Part shown: positions 4,666 through 60,130 of the stretch, in pieces
Layout of the letters: the number at the start of each line of letters is the position of its first letter
Position numbering within the stretch: position 1 is the stretch's first letter
Source of the DNA: a virus
Lineage: Duplodnaviria; Caudoviricetes
Direction: 5' to 3' (one strand)
DNA: 64,000 nucleotides
Virus record (IMG/VR): IMGVR_UViG_3300011832_000001
Span: 59,867 to 123,866 of that record
The notes under the pieces: model-generated
Seen by the model: only the letters and a program-made list of their open reading frames with translations
Told to the model about the DNA's origin: nothing
Databases searched by the model: none
Program-made: the position numbers and the translations under genes

Positions 4666-5188
4666 TTCTTAAGAAATCAAATTGAGCCAATACCTCATCA
4701 TTTTGAATACTTTGTTCAGCTTGTTCTAAAGCAATAGAAATATTTTCATTATTCTTTTCAATGAAATCAGAAATATATTTAAACACTGATGCAACTTGGT
4801 CTTCATCCATTGTTTTAACAACATCAGTCCAAAGTCCTGCATCTACAAAATCAAATACAGAAGACATTACTTCCGAATAAGTCTCTCCAATATCATCCAA
4901 GCTAGTGAAATGCTTCAAGCATAGAGCAATGATATAAGCTCCAAAATTAGTTTCTTTTTCTTCTACTGTAAATTTGTATTCTTCATTTTCATCTTCATAA
5001 ATTAAATTAGCAACCATCTCAGAAGCTAAATCAGCTTTCTTCGATTCAACAAATCTAGAGTCAACTTCAATCCAATAAGTGATTTCAGCACCCTCTTCAT
5101 TTGTGACTGTAATGGTTTTCTTTTCACGCTTTGGTGTAAAGTCCTTATTAACTTTTGCTAATGTAAGTTTTTTACCTTTATTTGCCAT
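4631..5188 (-). CDS. Putative tail assembly chaperone
   Basis: Acidic 185-aa protein between major tail and tape measure genes; start reassigned to MANKGKK (AGGAGAG RBS). Confidence 0.6.
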   Translation of the reverse strand: MANKGKKLTLAKVNKDFTPKREKKTITVTNEEGAEITYWIEVDSRFVESKKADLASEMVANLIYEDENEEYKFTVEEKETNFGAYIIALCLKHFTSLDDIGETYSEVMSSVFDFVDAGLWTDVVKTMDEDQVASVFKYISDFIEKNNENISIALEQAEQSIQNDEVLAQFDFLRNEVVEDESKSE

Positions 5189-5280
5189 TTCTTTTCTCTC
5201 CCTTTTAATCATAAAATCTTGTCGCATTGGCGACTTTATTATAGGGAGAAATAAATTCTCCCTACTAAAAATCGTCAATC

Positions 5281-7560
5281 TTAGTAACGAATCAATTCAA
5301 CCATTTTCTTACCATTCGCATCTTGAAGTACATCAAGGTTGAATGTGAAAGTAGATGGGTTCTCAGGGTCTAACGTGATAGTCATACCCGGTAATAGCTT
5401 CGCTTTTGGAATGTTGATTTGGAATGCATGGTCTTTACCATCTTTTTCATTACGAACCAATGTGTTAGCAACAACACGGTAAGTTGATGGATAGTCGTTA
5501 GAGTTAAATGTAACTGTAACTGCTTCCGTAACTTCTTTTTCGTAGTAGATGATATACTGAGCACCAACTACAAGAGCTGTTCCTGCAAGAGTAACAGAAC
5601 CTGTAACAAACTGATAACCATCAGTAGCACTATCAGCGATTTCCTCACCACTACCACCATCAGCCAACATTTGAACCTGAACAACTGTTTCTGCATCTGC
5701 AACAGGAATTACACCATCAGCAGGAGCTACAGCTTTCTTAGTAAGCATAACTGTTTTAGTTCCTGTCTCAGCTTGTGTACCTGCCATCATAGCCAATGAT
5801 TGGTCAGAAAGTAAAGCATCCTCTACTTGTAATTGTCCTTCCTATTGTATTCGCTATAAGTCGCAACACTTATAACCGTTCTTGCCAAGTAGTATCAAGA
5901 ACTGCTTATGGTTTCCCATAAGTATAGACTATATCAAAAACTCAATCGAGTTCCTTCCCATTTCCAACACCATTAGCTTGTGTTGTACTCGCATTTCAGC
6001 GATAGTCGTTGAGGATTGAATCTATATTATTTTTTAAAATTTGTAAATTGTAATTTCTATATCTAGCATAGTTTCTTTGTCTTACTCTTATCAAAGGAAT
6101 ATTCATATTTTCACAATATTCATTTTTGGTATTATCATTTGATTTTTGATTTTCAAAGCTACTTTCTCCGCCAAAGAATTCAATTGGCTTATAGTGTTGC
6201 TCTCCGTCAAATTCAATCAGACATATCAACTTATTTTTATGATATACTCCAAAATCAAATCTAAGACTATAATTTTGATTTATGCCACTCTTTAAATCTT
6301 CGAATGTTACTTCTCTTTCTACTTCCAATTTAAATTCATTGATAAGATTAAAGTATAGGTCATCTGCCCAAATGTTATTTGATTTTCTACAGAAATCACA
6401 TTTTGAACCACCCATAACTTTATGATGATATTTTTCATTTAATTTATGACAATCAGAACATTTATATAGAGACTTCTCTCTGCTACCTCTGTACTCAATC
6501 ATTATTAAATTCATATATCCTTGAAATTTATTAATTATCTCAGCATTGCAAATTTCTAAATTTTTTAATTTGGAATTTGAGCAAGATGGACAATTATCAT
6601 TTCCTGAAATTCGAAGTCTGACAAAAGAACAATCAAAATCATTTGAACATGAATTACATTTCAGAAAAACTCTCTCATCATCAAAATCAATTAAGCTATA
6701 ATTTTTTTCCTTACAGCTCTCATCTATTAAAGATTTTCTACTACATCTCTTACATGAATATCCACGATGAGAAAAGTTAGATGGAATAACATTAACTTCC
6801 TCTAAACATTTATTGCAGGATATAGTAACTGATGTTTTAGCGTTTTTATAATCCGAAATCAATTTAAAATCAAATTCTTTTAATTTATTATAGAATTTAC
6901 TCATAATATAGACTCCTTTCCTGCGTATTATCCATTTTAATTATATCATATATAATTAAATCTGTCAACTTTTTATAGCATTTACGTTTGTGTTTCCACT
7001 CCGCTTTAGCATGACAGCTTTAGGATTTTCACGCATTTAAAGAAGTTTCGACATGGCATCACTACCATGAAGCGCAAATTATTTACGGTTGTAGTCCCCA
7101 CTACAAATATATTCAATACAGTTCGTTAAGCTGTATTCGTCATAAGACTGCTCATAGTTTCCCATGAGATTAGACTATATCTTCAATCAATTAAGATTGC
7201 CCTCCGTTTCCATTCACTTGAATGTACGTTAAAAACTAGTCGTTGAAGTTTACCCATTTTAAAGGGTCTTACCTGCTTATTGTCCAATCCTAAATATTTT
7301 CAAGCATTCACACTTACCTTTTCAGATTATGTTGTAGCTATTTAGGCTCTAAGGATTTTCAAGCAATTAGAAGGGTTTTAATTGAGCAGGACTTTCGTTT
7401 ACCCAATGATACGTGGATTACCTTGTCCACCTCGCGCATAAACAGTCTCTCCCGTTAACTCTAGGTTAGACATTTTAGCTGTGTCCATGAAAAGGACAGG
7501 TTTATTTGTTTCTAAGTCGATGAAAATTAAATCAGCAACCTCTTTAATACCATAACGCAT
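5281..7560 (-). CDS. Major tail protein, spliced: exons 7560-7401, 7098-7085, 5841-5281 (244 aa)
   Basis: Exons 160+14+561 = 735 nt join in frame to give MRYGIKEVADL...ARGGQGNPRIIG-WDYNR-EGQLQVEDALL...FQINIPKAKL...DPENPSTFTFNLDVL, a typical SPbeta-like tail tube sequence. Confidence 0.9.
5842..7084 (-). ncRNA. Group I intron 2 of the major tail gene (1243 nt, carries endonuclease ORF)
   Basis: P1 CGT|AAAT with ATTTGCG gives U.G; core TCAACGACTAT and TGATATAGTCTA; terminal G at 5842. Confidence 0.9.
5996..6904 (-). CDS. Intron-encoded homing endonuclease (CxxC zinc-ribbon repeats + Vsr-like/PD-(D/E)xK domain)
   Basis: Repeated CxxC pairs; C-terminal LRFDF...IEFDGEQHY...KNEYC...IPLIRV; ORF ends inside the intron core. 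Confidence 0.85.
   Translation of the reverse strand: MSKFYNKLKEFDFKLISDYKNAKTSVTISCNKCLEEVNVIPSNFSHRGYSCKRCSRKSLIDESCKEKNYSLIDFDDERVFLKCNSCSNDFDCSFVRLRISGNDNCPSCSNSKLKNLEICNAEIINKFQGYMNLIMIEYRGSREKSLYKCSDCHKLNEKYHHKVMGGSKCDFCRKSNNIWADDLYFNLINEFKLEVEREVTFEDLKSGINQNYSLRFDFGVYHKNKLICLIEFDGEQHYKPIEFFGGESSFENQKSNDNTKNEYCENMNIPLIRVRQRNYARYRNYNLQILKNNIDSILNDYR
7099..7400 (-). ncRNA. Group I intron 1 of the major tail gene (302 nt, no ORF)
   Basis: Exon ends in U and intron ends in G. P1: ATTGGGT pairs with GCTCAAT, with U.G at the splice site. P10: AGTCCT with exon GGGACT. Core TCAACGACTAG and GAAGATATAGTCTAA (P7 GACUA/UAGUC). Confidence 0.9.
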
Positions 7561-7631
7561 TAAATTTTTCCTCCTTATTAATAAAAAAACTTTCAGTAAA
7601 TTTGCTTCTCGATATAGGACTCTCACCTATA

Positions 7632-8351
7632 TCAAGATTCAGGATTACTACTCCAATGTTTCATCTCAACGTCTTTTGCTCCTTGCAATAGAGCGCCAAA
7701 ATTCATTTCAAACTCATCAATCATCTGTAGGCGCTTGTACTCATCATAAAGCTGATAAACTGTCAAGTCCCAAATTTTGAGCTTGTCTAAACTATTGCTC
7801 CTTGTGCTTACTGATGATATAATGTCAGAGAATCTAATAGGTGATTCACTACTCTTTGCTTTTCCGATTTTTTCTTTAGCTTGCTTAATTTTTGAAGCTA
7901 TCTCTTCGGCTTTTGGGTCAGCAGGAACATATTTCTCTGATTCGGAATCGGCTAGACCATAAAGTATTTTAACAATATTGATGACTTCGTAGTATTTATC
8001 ACGACTTAATATTTTTCCTTTATTGTCACCCGACTCAAAAATAATCTCTAGATTATTATTTAGGTTCACTTTTGACTTAAAGACTAATTCGAAAGCTCTA
8101 AGCATATTCAAGAATTGTTCATTTTGCCCCACAAGTTTAAAATATTGATGTGGCATTAGATAACGAGCTTCCTTAGGTAATCCTTTGAAAAACTCCTCAT
8201 CTAAATCGAAAGTTACATATGATAAAACCTTAGCATAATCTTCATAGCCCATATCTTTAATCTCTCTCAAAGTAAGCGAGGGGATGCTTATTCCTTGATA
8301 GTCTATAGGTTCACCTGACAATAACTTAATTGCTAATGTTTCATTAATCAT
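7632..8351 (-). CDS. Conserved virion morphogenesis protein (tail region)
   Basis: Position in structural operon; IWDLTVYQLYDEYKRL...LLQGA...KHW motif of SPbeta-like phages. Confidence 0.55.
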   Translation of the reverse strand: MINETLAIKLLSGEPIDYQGISIPSLTLREIKDMGYEDYAKVLSYVTFDLDEEFFKGLPKEARYLMPHQYFKLVGQNEQFLNMLRAFELVFKSKVNLNNNLEIIFESGDNKGKILSRDKYYEVINIVKILYGLADSESEKYVPADPKAEEIASKIKQAKEKIGKAKSSESPIRFSDIISSVSTRSNSLDKLKIWDLTVYQLYDEYKRLQMIDEFEMNFGALLQGAKDVEMKHWSSNPES

Positions 8352-30162: not shown

Positions 30163-30237
30163 CTGAACGTAGGCTAATGGTAAGTCGCTTGATTTGGGTT
30201 CAAGAGAGTGAGAGTTCGATTCTCTCCGTTCAGACCA
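30163..30237 (+). tRNA. tRNA-Pro(UGG)
   Basis: Cloverleaf, loop TTTGGGT, encoded CCA. Confidence 0.9.
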
Positions 30238-30238
30238 T

Positions 30239-30315
30239 AGGGATGTGGGCAAATTGGTATAGCCGTCTGCCTTTGAAGCAGAAGTTTTTTGAAGGTTCGA
30301 ACCCTTCCATCCCTG
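30239..30315 (+). tRNA. tRNA-Gln(UUG)
   Basis: Cloverleaf, loop CTTTGAA, no encoded CCA. Confidence 0.85.
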
Positions 30316-30323
30316 CTTATCGT

Positions 30324-30398
30324 GGTGGCTATGACGTAATGGTAACGTGACGTTCTGTGAAAGCGTATATTCGGGGTCAGTACCCGATAGCCACACCA
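30324..30398 (+). tRNA. tRNA-His(GUG)
   Basis: Loop CTGTGAA; G-1 opposite A73; atypical T loop. Confidence 0.8.
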
Positions 30399-30399
30399 A

Positions 30400-30471
30400 G
30401 CCTTATTAGTTTAATTGGTAAAACAGGAAACTTGTAATTTTCAGAAGGCGGTTCGAAACCGTCATAAGGCA
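30400..30471 (+). tRNA. tRNA-Thr(UGU)
   Basis: Cloverleaf, loop CTTGTAA. Confidence 0.88.
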
Positions 30472-30517
30472 TTTTATAGAAAAAATAAGAAAGGTTAGGT
30501 GATGACTTATTTCTAAA

Positions 30518-31093
30518 ATGACTAGAAGTGAAGCAGGCAAATTAGGTTCTTTGAAATCGACTCAAAACTTCCTTAATAGGTATAATCAAAATCCTTCTTA
30601 TTGTGAAGAATGTAATGAGAAGCTTGATTATAAAAAAAGAAATAATCAATTTTGTAGCAGAAAATGTTTTCATAAAAATCGTTCAAACAAAGAAAATTTA
30701 AAACATTTAGAATGCCTAAATTGTAAATCAAATATTCTAGGGAAAAATAGACATAGAAGACTTTATTGTTCTCAATCATGTTTTTTTGAACATGACTTAA
30801 AAAAAGATGTTGAAAAATTTCTTAATGATGAAGTTGATTTTGGGATAAAAAGAATAAAAAGTGTTTTAATTAGCATACATGGTAACACCTGTTCTTCTTG
30901 TGGTAATACTGAGTGGATGGATAATCCAATACCTTTGGAATTACATCATATAGATGGAGATGCGAATAATAACAGCAGAGATAATGTTGTTCATTTATGC
31001 CCTAACTGTCATGCATTGACAGATAACTACAAAAATAAAAACAAAGAATCAACTAGGAAGTATAGAAAAAAATATTATCAACCCGCAACATGA
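30518..31093 (+). CDS. HNH endonuclease (free-standing)
   Basis: FCSRKC/YCSQSC repeats; LELHHIDGDANNN...LCPNCHA. Confidence 0.9.
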   Translation: MTRSEAGKLGSLKSTQNFLNRYNQNPSYCEECNEKLDYKKRNNQFCSRKCFHKNRSNKENLKHLECLNCKSNILGKNRHRRLYCSQSCFFEHDLKKDVEKFLNDEVDFGIKRIKSVLISIHGNTCSSCGNTEWMDNPIPLELHHIDGDANNNSRDNVVHLCPNCHALTDNYKNKNKESTRKYRKKYYQPAT

Positions 31094-31101
31094 TTTATTA
31101 T

Positions 31102-31175
31102 GGCTATGTAGTTCAGTGGTAAGACGAGTGGTTGCAACCCACTAGACCTCAGTTCGATTCTGAGCATAGCTTCCA
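31102..31175 (+). tRNA. tRNA-Cys(GCA)
   Basis: Cloverleaf, loop TTGCAAC, U73-CCA. Confidence 0.9.
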
Positions 31176-31199
31176 TTTTATTTTAAGGAGGATATTCAC

Positions 31200-31445
31200 A
31201 TGAAAGACCCTTTAGTATTTGATAAAAGATTCAAAGGATTTTATATTAAGTTTCAAAACTTTAATAGAACTAGAATGTTCCATGATTGGAGCTTTGCTTT
31301 CGGTGGATGTAAAGAATCCTCTAGCAGATTTAAAAATGGATATGATAAACCAAAAACGCATGATGGTAGAGATATTTACTTTTTCGCTACTTTCTTTAAT
31401 TATCAAATTTCATTTGGTCATGAAAAATTGGAGACTGTTCAATGA
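31200..31445 (+). CDS. Hypothetical protein
   Basis: AGGAGG RBS. Confidence 0.6.
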   Translation: MKDPLVFDKRFKGFYIKFQNFNRTRMFHDWSFAFGGCKESSSRFKNGYDKPKTHDGRDIYFFATFFNYQISFGHEKLETVQ

Positions 31446-31651
31446 AAACAGAAAAAGAGATTCAAGAAAGAATTGATGAACATTATAAGAAAATTAAAAT
31501 TTTTGAAAGAATCATCAAAAAGAATGGAGAAAGTTTAGGACTTACTCTAGCGATAGAAATTCAAGAGACATATATTCTAGGTTTGGAATGGGTCTTAAAT
31601 GAATCAAAGCTAGAAGACAAACTTATAAAAAAAGCTATTGACAAGAAGTAA
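31442..31651 (+). CDS. Hypothetical protein
   Basis: ATGA overlap; LEWVL motif. Confidence 0.6.
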   Translation: MKTEKEIQERIDEHYKKIKIFERIIKKNGESLGLTLAIEIQETYILGLEWVLNESKLEDKLIKKAIDKK

Positions 31652-31672
31652 GTAATATGATATAATAAGATA

Positions 31673-31797
31673 AAGACACAAACAGCAAATTTTCCAAATT
31701 ATATTTCTGCAAAAATAAGGTGGGAGTTCGAATCTTCCCTTTCCGATACTAGGTCTTGGAATGTGGTGTAATGGTAGCACAAAAATGGTGTGTCTAG
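31673..31797 (+). ncRNA. Y-like RNA copy 2 with circularly permuted tRNA-like domain (YrlA-like)
   Basis: Own promoter. AGACACA/TGTGTCT stem with AACAGCAA bulge. Inside, in order: Cys-type anticodon hairpin, T arm GGGAG-TTCGAAT-CTTCC, looped acceptor TTCC/GGAA, D arm GTG-TAATGGTAG-CAC. Confidence 0.8.
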
Positions 31798-31838
31798 TAA
31801 ATGACCTTCCTAGTGGGTCTAAATTATTTTAAATTTAA

Positions 31839-31984
31839 ATTTATTCTAGTACGGTCGCCCGTATCCCAATTGGTTAAGACGACTCAAAAAGCTGATGGCT
31901 ACCTGCCTAGTAATAGGAAATATCTACCTCAGATTAGTAGAGGGCAAACTCAGCATAAAAGGTTGGAATACCTCTAGAATAAAT
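31839..31984 (+). ncRNA. Orphan structured RNA (~145 nt)
   Basis: 11-bp closing stem ATTTATTCTAG/CTAGAATAAAT; nested GTATCCCAATT/GGTTGGAATAC and GCTGA/TCAGC; abuts a tRNA 5' end. Confidence 0.6.
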
Positions 31985-31989
31985 ATTTT

Positions 31990-32064
31990 GGACTCTTAGC
32001 TCAGAGGAAGAGCCGTCAGCTCATAACTGACAGGTCGAGATTTCGAAATTCTCAGAGTCCACCA
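31990..32064 (+). tRNA. tRNA(CAU), probably Ile2 (lysidine)
   Basis: Loop CTCATAA; GGAC acceptor resembling Bacillus tRNA-Ile2. Confidence 0.8.
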
Positions 32065-32068
32065 ATAT

Positions 32069-32139
32069 TGCTCATCTAAGGGTTTAGACTTACGTCTCAT
32101 AAGCGTGATGAAGTGGTTCAACTCCACTATGAGCAACCA
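32069..32139 (+). tRNA. tRNA-Met(CAU) with shortened D arm
   Basis: Acceptor TGCTCAT/ATGAGCA, loop CTCATAA, CCA; D arm reduced. Confidence 0.7.
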
Positions 32140-32191
32140 AATTTAATACTTGACAAATGGTTTCAAGTATGGTATAATAAGTATATAACAT

Positions 32192-32266
32192 GGGGGATTA
32201 GCTCAATTTGGTTAGAGCGTTGCACTGTCTATGCAAAGGTTGCGAGTTCAAGTCTCGTATCTCTCG
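32192..32266 (+). tRNA. tRNA-Asp(GUC)
   Basis: Cloverleaf, loop CTGTCTA, G73. Confidence 0.88.
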
Positions 32267-32335
32267 TTAGAATCTCAAGCGAAACACAAGCGAAGTTCCG
32301 TTTCTTCTATTAACGCCACTGAGGTTCTTCTAATA

Positions 32336-32413
32336 TGGCTGTCGGGAGGTTGGCATCTCAAGTAGTCTCATAAGCTACAGTAATTTGGTTCGATTCCAAA
32401 GGTTCAGCAACCA
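32336..32413 (+). tRNA. tRNA-Met(CAU) with irregular acceptor stem
   Basis: Loop CTCATAA, T arm TTTGG-TTCGATT-CCAAA, CCA; acceptor bulged. Confidence 0.6.
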
Positions 32414-32420
32414 ATTTAAG

Positions 32421-33032
32421 TTTCAATGCTTAAATAAATAAATCTACTAAACCTAGTGCAAGAATGGCGTAAGACACCATGCTAGGACGGTATCGTGTAA
32501 AATCCAATGTGGTCAAAGAGTGGGATACTGCTCATTGATGAATACACAGCACATCTTATGGCGACATAAGAATAGCCAATAGTAAAAGCTATTGTTGGTG
32601 AGGTAACGTGTGGAGCTTAATGATTCATAAAGTACAGTGAACTAGTGGCGATGACAATAGACAGTCAAAGTTTGACGTTGAAGCCTATAGCGCTTCCAAA
32701 GGGATTTGGAAGTATAGATGCGTAGGTAATCCAAAAACAAATCGCTATCCGTTGAAGCAACAGAAATGTTTTGTATAACACTAGAAACTGATGCAAGTAG
32801 CCTTATCGGATTAGTTTAATATAGAGTATATTTGAAGACTTTATGTAAAATAACTATCTGAATGTCTTCGGTGAAAGCTGTAACCCGTTGCGGTTGACAA
32901 CGCCTTGAAATGCAATAAGATGTTTCGAAGTAGCTAGCGAAGCACAGACTTATTGAGCGTTTGACTGAATAATGAAGCAGTTAAGTGAAGCAGGAGTAAA
33001 AGCCTAGTGATTTATTTATTTAAGTATTGAAA
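32421..33032 (+). ncRNA. Large structured ncRNA, ROOL-like (~610 nt)
   Basis: ORF-free, flanked by tRNAs; ~28-bp terminal stem 32421-32449 with 33005-33032; many internal hairpins. Family assigned only from size and context. Confidence 0.7.
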
Positions 33033-33039
33033 ATACTTT

Positions 33040-33114
33040 GGGGAGATAGCTGAGATAGATTAGCGAAGGTTTGAAACGCCTTAGAGGTTGGAGCGTTACC
33101 AACTCTTCCCACCA
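33040..33114 (+). tRNA. tRNA-Phe(GAA)
   Basis: Loop TTGAAAC, CCA; non-canonical D and T loops. Confidence 0.8.
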
Positions 33115-33119
33115 AATAT

Positions 33120-33210
33120 GGAGCGTTACCCAAGTCAGGTTGAAGGGGACAGGTTGCTACCTTGTTAGGCGTTAATTCGTGCGTGGGTTCAAATCCCACA
33201 CGCTCCTCCA
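33120..33210 (+). tRNA. tRNA-Ser(GCU)
   Basis: Loop TTGCTAC, long variable arm, CCA. Confidence 0.9.
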
Positions 33211-33272
33211 TTTTAAAAATAACTGTTGACAAACAGTTGATTAAATGCTATAATATAAATATAGCAAAACAT

Positions 33273-33346
33273 AGTGGTATAGCTTAATGGTAAAGCCTTT
33301 CGCTGATAACGGAAAGATGGTAGTTCAATTCTACCTACCACTACCA
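33273..33346 (+). tRNA. tRNA-Ile(GAU)
   Basis: Loop CTGATAA, CCA. Confidence 0.9.
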
Positions 33347-33351
33347 AATAC

Positions 33352-33427
33352 GTGTCCTTAGCTCAGTGGTTAGAGCGCTCGCCTGTTAAGCGAGATGTCC
33401 TCGGTTCAAATCCTGTAGGATACGCCA
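33352..33427 (+). tRNA. tRNA-Asn(GUU)
   Basis: Loop CTGTTAA, G73-CCA; T stem poorly paired. Confidence 0.8.
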
Positions 33428-33431
33428 ATAT

Positions 33432-33518
33432 GGGGATTCGCTAGAGTTGGAGAGCTAGGACGGGCTGTAACCCCGTTGCGTTTACGCTGATAGTGTTCGA
33501 ATCACTAAGTCCTCACCA
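33432..33518 (+). tRNA. tRNA-Tyr(GUA)
   Basis: Loop CTGTAAC, long variable arm, CCA. Confidence 0.9.
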
Positions 33519-33519
33519 T

Positions 33520-33593
33520 GCTTGATTAGTTTAATGGGAAAACATCTGTTTTACATGCAGAAGTCAGTGGTTCGATTCCACTATCGAGTACCA
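33520..33593 (+). tRNA. tRNA-Val(UAC)
   Basis: Loop TTTACAT, CCA. Confidence 0.9.
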
Positions 33594-33597
33594 ATAT

Positions 33598-33673
33598 GGG
33601 GAATTAGTTTACATGGATAAAACACTTGGTTTGCAACCAAGAAAAATCAGTTCAATTCTGATATTCTCCACCA
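33598..33673 (+). tRNA. tRNA-Ala(UGC)
   Basis: Loop TTTGCAA, G3.U70, CCA. Confidence 0.9.
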
Positions 33674-33679
33674 AATTAT

Positions 33680-33757
33680 GGGACGGTAGCTCAGGGGAAT
33701 TAGAGCAGTTGGCTTTTAACCAACGGGTCGAAGGTTCGAATCCTTCTCGTCTCACCA
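33680..33757 (+). tRNA. tRNA-Lys(UUU)
   Basis: Loop CTTTTAA, CCA. Confidence 0.92.
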
Positions 33758-33763
33758 TTATTA

Positions 33764-33873
33764 TTGGGAAGACAACATGGTTGGCTCTATGACGGTAGAG
33801 AGAAATATAGGTGCAACTCCTATACACTTCGGTGAGTAGTAAAATGTGAGTTCAAGTCTCACCTTCCCAACCC
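33764..33873 (+). ncRNA. tRNA-like RNA with acceptor and T arm but no anticodon arm
   Basis: TTGGGAAG/CTTCCCAA stem, T arm GTGAG-TTCAAGT-CTCAC, three internal hairpins. Confidence 0.65.
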
Positions 33874-33883
33874 TTTTAAATAT

Positions 33884-33957
33884 GGCTTCGTATTCCAATT
33901 GGCAGAGAAAACGGTCTTAGAAACCGTACAGTGTGAGTTCGAGTCTCACCGAAGCTA
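33884..33957 (+). tRNA. tRNA-Leu(UAG), short variable loop
   Basis: Loop CTTAGAA; lacks the long variable arm. Confidence 0.85.
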
Positions 33958-34036
33958 CTTAAAGACCCCTTCGAAACTGCGGTTGACGATTAAATGGTGT
34001 TATCTCTACGGAGAGCATCATCGAGGGAAATATTAT

Positions 34037-34113
34037 GTGCAATTAGCTTAATTGGAAAAAGCCCCTGACTACGAATCAGGTAGCTGTAAGTTCGAGTCTT
34101 ACATTGCACACCA
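34037..34113 (+). tRNA. tRNA-Arg(ACG)
   Basis: Loop CTACGAA, CCA. Confidence 0.9.
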
Positions 34114-34117
34114 TCAT

Positions 34118-34189
34118 GTCCCGTTAGTCAAGTGGTTAAGACGTTAGATTTTCAATCTAAAGGCAGGAGTTCGATTCTCCTACGGGGTA
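34118..34189 (+). tRNA. tRNA-Glu(UUC)
   Basis: Loop TTTTCAA. Confidence 0.88.
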
Positions 34190-34197
34190 TTTATTAT

Positions 34198-34285
34198 GGA
34201 GACGTAGACATAATTGGTATTGTGGTGCTCTTGAAAAGCATTGAGCCTAACGGCTTTGTCGGTTCGAGTCCGACCGTCTCCTCCA
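34198..34285 (+). tRNA. tRNA-Ser(UGA)
   Basis: Loop CTTGAAA, long variable arm, CCA. Confidence 0.9.
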
Positions 34286-34422
34286 TTTTGATTTTTGTGA
34301 CACGTATTAGAATTTGGGAAACAGGTTAGTTAGAGACCATCCTAATGATAAGCAAGAAAGTGTTGTAGCTTATTGCTTGATTCTAACATCATTTTTCTAG
34401 TACGTGGTCAGAGAAATCAAAA
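34286..34422 (+). ncRNA. Rod-shaped RNA with central bubble (~137 nt)
   Basis: TTTTGATTT..TGAC-ACGTATTAGAA pairs with TTCTAGTACGT-GGTCA..AAATCAAAA; inner GTTAG/CTAAC and ATAAGC/GCTTAT. Confidence 0.55.
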
Positions 34423-34476
34423 TTAATAGTTGACATTTTGGTTAATCTATGTTATAATTATATTATAAGGTTAAGA

Positions 34477-34533
34477 AAGACTCGTAAACAGCAATTTATA
34501 AAAATTAGGATGAATTTTATTAATTGAGTCTTG
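34477..34533 (+). ncRNA. Y-like RNA copy 3
   Basis: AAGACTC/GAGTCTT stem, AAACAGCAA bulge; just downstream of promoter 34430-34458. Confidence 0.72.
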
Positions 34534-34558
34534 TTACATACCTACAATGGGTAGGTCA

Positions 34559-34676
34559 AAAGCACATACAGCAATAAATTCTTACGAATTTACAAATCTG
34601 AACAAATATCAGGTATATCATCGAAAGGTGACGTGTTTGGAATCTGCTTGACGAGACGACAGATTCTTGTGCTTTG
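34559..34676 (+). ncRNA. Y-like RNA copy 4 (four-hairpin insert)
   Basis: AAAGCACA/TGTGCTTT stem, TACAGCAA bulge. Confidence 0.72.
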
Positions 34677-34684
34677 TTTATTAT

Positions 34685-34766
34685 CCTTGAGTGGCGGAAT
34701 GGCAGACGCTGAGGACTTAAAATCCTTTGTCTTTATGACGTGAGAGTTCGAGTCTCTCCTTGAGGA
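34685..34766 (+). tRNA. tRNA-Leu(UAA)
   Basis: Loop CTTAAAA, long variable arm. Confidence 0.88.
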
Positions 34767-34776
34767 CTTATATTAT

Positions 34777-34848
34777 GCGCCTATAGTTAAACGGATATAA
34801 CACATCCCTTCTAAGGATATATTCGAGGTTCGATTCCTCGTGGGCGTA
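34777..34848 (+). tRNA. tRNA-Arg(UCU)
   Basis: Loop CTTCTAA. Confidence 0.88.
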
Positions 34849-34883
34849 TTAGCAAGACATAGCTTACCATTGTAAGCAAGTTT

Positions 34884-34952
34884 TAGGCACTAACAGCAAA
34901 CTTTACACTATTAAAATTATTCGGAAAATTTAATTGAAGTAAAAGTGCCTAG
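34884..34952 (+). ncRNA. Y-like RNA copy 5
   Basis: TAGGCACT/AGTGCCTA stem, AACAGCAA bulge. Confidence 0.72.
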
Positions 34953-35066
34953 TTACATACCACTATGTCGGAATAGTGGATATGTCGGTATTGACGGATA
35001 CCGTCTAGAATGGCTTCTAATTGTCATAATGAAAGACTTGCAGACTTTAAATAGTCTGCCCTCTAT

Positions 35067-35140
35067 AGGTCTTTGGTGTAGTGGTAACACGCTGAGTTCC
35101 AACCTCAGAATCGTGGGTTCGATTCCTACAAGATTTGCCA
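35067..35140 (+). tRNA. tRNA-Trp(CCA)
   Basis: Loop TTCCAAC, G73-CCA. Confidence 0.88.
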
Positions 35141-35145
35141 ATTAT

Positions 35146-35218
35146 GTGGGATTAGTTTAACGGTAGAATATCGGTCTTCCAAACCGAAGGTGCTAGGGTT
35201 CGACCCCCTCATCCCATA
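35146..35218 (+). tRNA. tRNA-Gly(UCC)
   Basis: Loop CTTCCAA; irregular T stem. Confidence 0.75.
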
Positions 35219-59240: not shown

Positions 59241-60130
59241 ATGGCAACAATGAAATTTATTTTAACTAATCGCGAAGATGGAGAAACATTCTCTGCAACA
59301 ACTGAATGTGTCATTCGAGTAATCGGAGCTTATAAACTGGAAAGATTGATGCGTGAGGTTCGTGAGACAGGTAAGCCAAACACTTCTCAATTCGAAGGAA
59401 ATTATGAATTGACTGTTAAAACAGATGAGCAATTCTTAATCGAAGATTTAGAGGAGCAAGCAAAGGGTCTTAGAAATCAATTGATTCGACTCGAAACTAA
59501 AATTAAAGAAGAAAAAATAAAATTGAACTTCAAAAAAGCAATGGGAGGAAATTTTAAATGAAAAGTTATGAAGTTGGCTATACATGGGAGCGTAAAGATT
59601 TTGAACACGAAGTAGTCGCTAGTGTCAAACATGAGAATGATGATGAAATCATGGTTCTTTTAATTAAACTTCGTCAATTCGGCTCAGAAAAGGTTGAATA
59701 TAATACTATGGAAGTTTTCGTTGGGAAGCGATATAATGTCTTCATTGTTGAAGAGGAGACCAAAAAACAAGTTTGGAAATTAAATGAGAAAGAGCTTAAA
59801 TACGGCGAAGCCTTCCAAGTGTTTAGTAAGAATATCCACCACTTAGGAGAAGGTTATGCAATCAATGTGGAGGAAATTGAAAATGATTAATTTAATTGGG
59901 AGAAAGGAGATTAAATAATGGAACTATTATTCGCAGTAGGTTTTATGATTCTATCGCTAGGTCTCCTCAAAGGTGGCTTACAATTATCTGAATTAATTGA
60001 TGATAACTGTACAGAGGAGCAATATAAATCGAAGAAGTTTGTAGAGATAGTCATTTCATATCTCGCTATGTCAGTAGCATTCTTCTTCTTATTAGCCTTA
60101 GCTTTGGTATATATTTTCTTTGCAGGATAA
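59241..60130 (+). other. Three small CDS (59241-59561, 59558-59890, 59918-60130 membrane)
   Basis: Promoter TTGACG-N17-TATACT; RBS. Confidence 0.6.

Follow-up and report, generated by a model that had tools for sequence, protein, structure and literature searches.

Very short exons between neighbouring group I introns have been described in several settings. The closest parallel to the gene considered here is orf142 of the Staphylococcus phage Twort, later recognised as a tail-tube gene, which two accounts (PMC10136302, PMC11878797) describe as having three group I introns and a 23-nucleotide (nt) exon that is either skipped or kept; the 23S rRNA gene of Coxiella burnetii has two group I introns (PMC10136302) around an exon of 34 nt. 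Tail-tube genes of Bacillus cereus-group prophages (KBAB4, B4264) contain a group I intron, as do tape-measure and terminase genes (PMC2504315), and among mitochondrial mini-exons between group I introns there is a 1-bp exon in placozoan cox1 (PMC5436844) and there are others of under about four codons (PMC10352661). Here we consider the tail-tube gene of an uncultured virus of the Caudoviricetes, IMG/VR record IMGVR_UViG_3300011832_000001, in a window of 64,000 nt (positions 59,867 to 123,866 of the record, the whole stretch of DNA that was analysed). Comparison with related alleles shows that this gene is interrupted by two group I introns only 14 bp apart, and that both would have to be excised for the tube protein to be made.

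The locus resembles each of these systems in part. In common with Twort orf142 it is a tail-tube gene that holds several group I introns, here tentatively placed in the IA2 (phage) subgroup, has an internal exon of very few nucleotides and depends on every splice. However, Twort is a myovirus with an unrelated tube protein, in which a 23-nt exon lies between highly similar introns and skipping has been shown by reverse-transcription PCR, whereas here the exon is 14 nt long, the introns are 56% alike and have different guides, one of them carries an endonuclease gene, and the arrangement is known from sequence alone. In Coxiella a short exon between tandem introns likewise serves both guide pairings, although the host is a bacterial rRNA gene, the introns belong to subgroups IB2 and IA3, the exon is longer and its skipping has been observed. 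The B. cereus-group introns share with ours their position in late structural genes of Firmicutes phages and the presence of stop codons at or near the intron start, but they are single and leave no micro-exon. The mitochondrial mini-exons are alike in being exons of a few nucleotides that arise from neighbouring, independent insertions and are missed by gene callers, and differ in belonging to organellar genes that are often spliced with the help of proteins.

The gene lies on the minus strand, as do all its elements given below, in the order exon 1, intron 1, micro-exon, intron 2 and exon 3. Nine nucleotides 5' of the ATG there is a ribosome-binding site, AAGGAGG (7570..7576), read from the sequence. 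Exon 1 (7401..7560) has 160 nt, that is, 53 codons and the T that starts a Trp codon, and is followed by intron 1 (7099..7400), a group I intron of 302 nt without an open reading frame (ORF), which matches the Rfam model RF00028 and ends in G7099. The micro-exon (7085..7098; GGGACTACAACCGT) encodes, together with the preceding T, the five residues W-D-Y-N-R, the Trp codon being composed of the last T of exon 1 and the GG of the micro-exon. Intron 2 (5842..7084) is a group I intron of 1243 nt with an endonuclease ORF in P6 and a terminal G5842, and exon 3 (5281..5841) contributes 186 codons and the stop; since the triplet just before it in this frame is TAG, the frame opens precisely at 5841. 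Unspliced, the frame that begins with the ATG at 7560 ends at a TAA spanning 7401/7400 (T/AA across the 5' splice site of intron 1), and intron 2 has an in-frame stop two codons inside. Joining 7401 to 7098 and 7085 to 5841 in silico produces a coding sequence (CDS) that stays in frame, of 735 nt and 244 codons.

The junctions are fixed by uninterrupted homologues. A protein search with exon 3 found such homologues of 243-245 amino acids (aa) at 85, 70, 68 and 38% identity, and another, of 220 aa, at 97%. The 53-aa product of exon 1, identical to protein P0012, aligns with residues 1-53 of the intronless homologues, and the gap left between exon 1 and exon 3 in this alignment is exactly five residues, W-D-Y-N-R, which read W-D-F-G-R in the most distant homologue; the intronless proteins P0001, P0002, P0004, P0005 and P0006 run continuously over both sites (..IIGWDYNREGQ..). 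At the DNA level, a Logan contig (L001) aligns with the in-silico spliced gene and its downstream neighbours over 1453 nt at 97.6% identity and with zero gaps, and the intronless alleles read ..TGGGA(C/T)TA(C/T)AACCGTGAAGG.. over both sites, so that sliding either junction by one base destroys the identity. A preliminary description of this DNA had placed two group I introns around a 14-nt micro-exon, and its coordinates and junctions are confirmed exactly. Its further claim that the micro-exon supplies W-D-Y-N-R holds as well, since the intronless homologues carry WDY at that position (WDF in the most distant), and so does the claim that both splices are needed: only the double joining gives a 244-codon CDS that matches them.

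Further alleles of the gene were gathered by searching with the 53-aa exon-1 ORF and with the endonuclease. One contig (L188) is identical to the window. In L189, exon 3 of which is 97% identical to that of the window, intron 1 is 1106 nt long and has an ORF of its own (284 aa), which is 28% identical to the ORF of intron 2 (E 2e-10), while the 14 nt are fused to exon 3 and intron 2 is absent; L187 is partly like this allele. L186 belongs to a tube lineage whose DNA is about 76% identical and has both introns: the ORF of intron 1 is broken (196 + 73 aa), the micro-exon again has 14 nt, and intron 2 measures 363 nt and lacks an ORF. In L185, from a third tube lineage, intron 2 is present and its ORF is 73% identical. 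Intron-free alleles are present in L001, L002, L003, L007, L008 and L105, and in three further sequencing runs there are contigs that span the micro-exon from one intron to the other, in one case with an intron 2 that has no ORF; stretches that no run covers are not taken as evidence.

Intron 1 matches RF00028 over the full model (positions 1-253; match 7426-7151) at 84.1 bits (E 6e-20), above the gathering threshold of 50 bits, and the whole 123,866-bp virus record has only two matches to this model. The internal guide sequence of the intron (7381..7393, intron nt 8-20) pairs through its 3' seven nucleotides with the last 7 nt of exon 1, forming P1 with a U.G at the splice site, and through its 5' six nucleotides with nt 1-6 of the micro-exon, forming P10. 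Together P1 and P10 make 13 contiguous pairs with the ligated exons, a number reached in 9 of 20,000 shuffles of the same stretch. Another P1, drawn by cmscan with a different upstream stretch, was rejected; it would shift the splice site 16 nt upstream and contradict the homologue alignment. When the window is compared with L189 and L186, P3 has two double compensatory changes, P9 has one and P9.1 at least two, and in P10 of both contigs a G-to-A change in the guide is matched by a synonymous C-to-T change in the Asp codon of the micro-exon. On this comparison of alleles, the changes support helices P3, P9, P9.1 and P10. The codon for Gly53 is GGG, which completes P1, in all three alleles with intron 1, and GGT or GGA in six of six intronless alleles. 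Nucleotides 3-7 of exon 3 (window 5835-5839) can also pair with the P10 part of the intron 1 guide, at -7.2 kcal/mol against -7.0 for the true partner; this pairing is 2 nt out of register, has no preceding G and is probably a coincidence.

Intron 2, taken whole, scores only 19.9 bits in the window because a 909-nt ORF sits in its P6. In truncated mode its 5' part (7094-6925) scores 25.6 bits (E 6e-5, model positions 1-93) and its 3' part (6030-5905) 22.3 bits (E 7e-4, model positions 121-253), and the ORF-less 363-nt counterpart at the same site in L186 matches the full model at 64.0 bits (E 4e-16); among the comparative data this last match is the decisive support for intron 2 as a group I intron. 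The guide sequence predicted from the cmscan P1 alignment (7070..7078, intron nt 7-15) has as its partners nt 1-3 of the intron and nt 9-14 of the micro-exon, with U7085.G at the splice site and one C.C mismatch. The 3' catalytic part (5842..6030) comprises J6/7, P7, P7.1/7.2, P3', P8, P7', P9, P9.1, P9.2 and the terminal G, and resembles introns of phages c-st, AR9 and PBS1. Both introns of the window have, in the alignment to the model, a hairpin-forming insertion of 28-40 nt between P7 and P3', where subgroup IA2 has its extra helices P7.1/P7.2; the assignment, made by eye, is tentative. The earlier claims about the two ribozymes are borne out by these results: the Rfam covariance-model search matches intron 1 over the full model and, at scores below the gathering threshold, the two halves of intron 2, each intron has a U.G at its 5' splice site and a terminal G (G7099, G5842), and the micro-exon is at once the P10 partner of intron 1 (nt 1-6) and the P1 partner of intron 2 (nt 9-14).

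The ORF within P6 of intron 2 (5996..6904; 302 aa, 909 nt) is intact and encodes a homing-endonuclease candidate. It matches Pfam DUF2726 (29.9 bits) and DUF4379, a family of treble-clef zinc fingers (26.6 bits), both above cut-off, and PHROG 559, 'HNH endonuclease' (E 7e-40), and its relatives in Enterococcus and Staphylococcus phages carry a homing endonuclease annotation. It is missing from the otherwise homologous copies of intron 2 in L186 and in run X9. The final codons of the ORF overlap J6/7-P7 of the ribozyme core and its ribosome-binding site abuts P4'/P6. A promoter sequence, TTGACA-17-TATAAT with a TG extension (6940..6968), lies in the P5 extension of the intron, 36 nt 5' of the endonuclease start codon; it matches the consensus at 12 of 12 positions, is the sole such site in 5000-8000, and is kept in L185 and in the ORF-less intron of L186. 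Introns of the T4 td, nrdB and sunY type (reviewed in PMC3984707) similarly have an ORF in a peripheral loop, with its own promoter, a ribosome-binding site beside the core helices and an end inside the core, and by this analogy intron 2 has the classic layout of a phage homing intron. The T4 introns differ in that they lie in genes of nucleotide metabolism and encode GIY-YIG or HNH endonucleases, whereas the ORF in the window combines zinc fingers with a DUF2726-type nuclease domain. We infer that the candidate endonuclease, like the ORF product of intron 1 in sister phages, would cut intronless alleles; the presence or absence of introns among alleles 97% identical, and the tract resembling co-conversion described below, bear on this indirectly.

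The spliced product is a 244-aa tail-tube protein of the SPbeta YomU/SPR kind. Precomputed Pfam assignments list PF27173 (YomU_Tube) for all homologues and for the exon-1 ORF, a copy of Pfam that probably lacks this model gave no hit, and the tube protein matches PHROG 2729 (E 1e-69). The genes of the homologues have YomV/YomW-type genes upstream and YomO and the tape measure downstream, and the tube gene of the window shares this synteny, being followed by a YomO-like ORF, an ORF of 185 aa and one for a tape measure longer than 1342 aa. Its place is thus the one between tail-completion genes and those for the chaperones and tape measure. With an AlphaFold model of an intronless homologue, Foldseek retrieved the tail-tube proteins 8ygm, 8xkn and 9jgh (E 2e-10 to 4e-9, probability 1.0), and a profile search of the PDB matched the same tail-tube chains at E 0.003. 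A second tube-gene copy was looked for in the record and none was found. The phage is an SPbeta-like siphophage, represented by a 124-kb record. Among the best structural matches is the tail-tube protein of phage SPR, alone and complexed with the defence protein DSR2, which means that the tube family includes a protein found with that defence protein. A terminator-like GC hairpin is present at 5221-5234, about 45 nt past the tube stop codon and ahead of the YomO-like gene. Elsewhere in the window, on the plus strand, a ROOL RNA (32428-33024; 207.7 bits) lies among 22 tRNA matches spread over 30163-35218.

Some observations weigh against our reading of the locus. P1 of intron 2 has only 3 contiguous exon pairs (five of the six exon positions if the C.C mismatch is allowed) and P10 only three weak pairs, and in shuffles P1 and P10 by themselves are no better than chance; because of this, it is the alignment of homologues, together with the terminal G5842, that fixes where intron 2 begins and ends, and the choice of its 3' splice site must depend on that G and on tertiary contacts. 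The lone contig from an RNA library that has the joined form (X15) carries synonymous variants of the intronless allele L001, and because its variants match that allele, and it may therefore stem from an intronless strain, we do not take it as proof of splicing. The source record is an uncultured virus contig, 76% complete, whose viability is assumed, and the AlphaFold model of the tube protein is mediocre (predicted local distance difference test score 66, template-modelling score about 0.4). Among other searches, a megablast search of a phage collection with positions 5000-8000 gave no match, and neither did an exact-pattern scan of viral contigs for the micro-exon junction and two intron 2 motifs.

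Several features of the alleles bear on how the introns arrived. The two introns are only 56% alike and, given their distribution among the related contigs, they are independent mobile elements. Homing of T4-type phage introns is accompanied by co-conversion of flanking exon sequence. Between the window and the intronless allele L001 there are 13 synonymous differences in CDS positions 99-159 (window 7402-7462; 61 nt, 21%), directly abutting the site of intron 1, whereas there are none in the 52 nt before this patch and none in the 88 nt after it, and 2.9% further on; the patch looks like a co-conversion tract brought in with intron 1. In L186 (5322-6165) the endonuclease gene of intron 1 is broken and intron 2 has lost its ORF and retained its promoter, so that both elements appear, from their sequences, to be decaying.

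One further contig, L190 (1498-1856), is 97.8% identical to the window upstream, but its homology to the exon ends at CDS 119/120, which is 41 nt short of the site of intron 1; the sequence past this point has a 7-bp P1 with a U.G, an early stop and a 48-nt stretch 81% like P3-P5 of intron 1. In truncated mode the partial intron had no match in Rfam, the contig ending inside the insertion. L190 probably represents a third group I insertion site within the same 55-nt stretch. More distant tube genes of the YomU type, about 33% identical and found on contigs of gut metagenome-assembled genomes, have also been invaded: one (L102, 5556-6183) has two introns (69 and 66 bits) around a 56-nt exon, and the other (L101, 5612-5858) has one intron (76 bits), at the second of these sites. 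Unlike ours, these insertions lie near the C-terminus, at roughly residues 205 and 225, none of the introns has an ORF, and the exon in the middle is longer.

The preliminary description had also suggested that skipping of the micro-exon would disrupt the gene and that ordered or competitive splicing might gate the production of tails. The first part stands: skipping creates T/GA, an immediate stop after residue 53, just as retention of intron 1 or of intron 2 ends translation after 53 or 59 residues. The second part is not supported. On that view ordered or competing splicing, or skipping of the micro-exon, would set the amount of full-length tube protein, the skipped form yielding a 53-aa N-terminal peptide, and 12 of the 14 nt of the micro-exon are indeed occupied in guide pairings. 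However, the P10 and P1 partners lie at opposite ends of it (nt 1-6 and nt 9-14), do not overlap and can form together. Neither does either guide fit the junction of exon 1 with exon 3 in register, where the guide of intron 1 pairs with just 1 nt of exon 3 and that of intron 2 with no more than 4 nt in exon 1 and a single one in exon 3, although out of register by 2 nt the pairing of exon 3 nt 3-7 with the intron 1 guide, noted above, is as strong as -7.2 kcal/mol.

Exon skipping between tandem group I introns is documented in Twort orf142 (23-nt exon) and in the Coxiella 23S rRNA gene (34-nt exon) (PMC10136302), and also in phage SIOphi (PMC11878797), which lends the idea of a gate some precedent. 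Yet skipping of the Twort kind involves two highly similar introns able to act as one ribozyme, whereas the introns in the window are 56% identical and their guides cross-pair poorly; when a chimeric ribozyme for skipping was assembled by hand from the 5' half of intron 1 and the 3' half of intron 2, its P3 paired poorly and the candidate was rejected. Engineered tandem introns with distinct recognition elements, moreover, favour inclusion of the exon (PMC10136302), and sister phages that have a single intron, or no intron at all, make this same protein, so that no regulatory role is required. We consider such a gate unlikely. A related proposal, which we regard as slightly less likely still, is that phage or host conditions, such as the level of GTP or Mg or the translation of the ORF inside the intron, could alter the proportion of the full-length product to the truncated products of 53 or 59 residues and in this way time or throttle tail assembly; were this true, it could also affect sensing by the DSR2 defence, given that the SPR member of the tube family is found in complexes with DSR2.

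It is also conceivable, though highly improbable, that the gene is dead, one or both introns having ceased to splice in what would be the contig of a defective phage. The weak P1 and P10 of intron 2, the large ORF in its P6 and a record that is only 76% complete would agree with this, but neither ribozyme core is damaged, the reading frame is open in each of the three exons, the protein is 97% identical to that of an intronless allele and the differences beside the introns are all synonymous. The same arrangement has, furthermore, been assembled in several independent samples, with an identical copy in L188, and this is the sole tube gene found in the record. That the two cores belong to one composite intron, or twintron, about 1.56 kb long, as their adjacency and the one long gap seen by gene callers might suggest, is refuted by L189, where intron 1 occurs by itself and the 14 nt directly adjoin exon 3, and by the protein alignment, in which the homologues require the five residues that these 14 nt encode, and with each intron having its own P1, core and terminal G we give this reading next to no credence.

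In place of a switch, we propose that a single tube gene was invaded twice, by two related but distinct mobile group I introns, at sites separated by 14 bp within the N-terminal part of the gene that is most conserved. Intron 1 would bring the end of exon 1 into line with nt 1-6 of the micro-exon, and intron 2 would use its last 6 nt; since each intron has its own guide and a non-overlapping partner in the micro-exon, the two splices should be mechanistically independent. We infer that both splices do take place, and that intron 1, which is transcribed first and is short, is probably removed first. The stop codons at or just inside the 5' splice sites would keep ribosomes off the folding ribozymes. 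In sister phages intron 1 has an endonuclease gene of its own, distantly related to that of intron 2, and the intron 1 of the window is a version of it without the ORF; the micro-exon is thus a by-product of adjacent homing sites and not a purpose-built switch. Because related contigs have the introns as independent mobile elements in various combinations, the arrangement can be explained without a regulatory purpose.

The principle is already known from Twort, and the gene described here is an extreme example of it and no new kind of control. Its internal exon of 14 nt is shorter than those of Twort and Coxiella, and its natural alleles make up an unusually informative set. The arrangement conceals an essential late gene from gene callers, which list fragments of 53 and 171 aa and miss the 244-aa protein. 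The compensatory change between the guide of intron 1 and the micro-exon, at a synonymous site, is a clean case of a coding sequence and a ribozyme co-evolving. The alleles form a series, from no intron, through intron 1 alone, to both introns with the endonuclease gene in either, together with a probable third site 41 nt upstream. This series could show whether co-conversion over 14 bp lets an intron without an ORF be carried along, whether the target of one intron is protected by insertion of the other, and what minimum length of exon can still serve two guide sequences.

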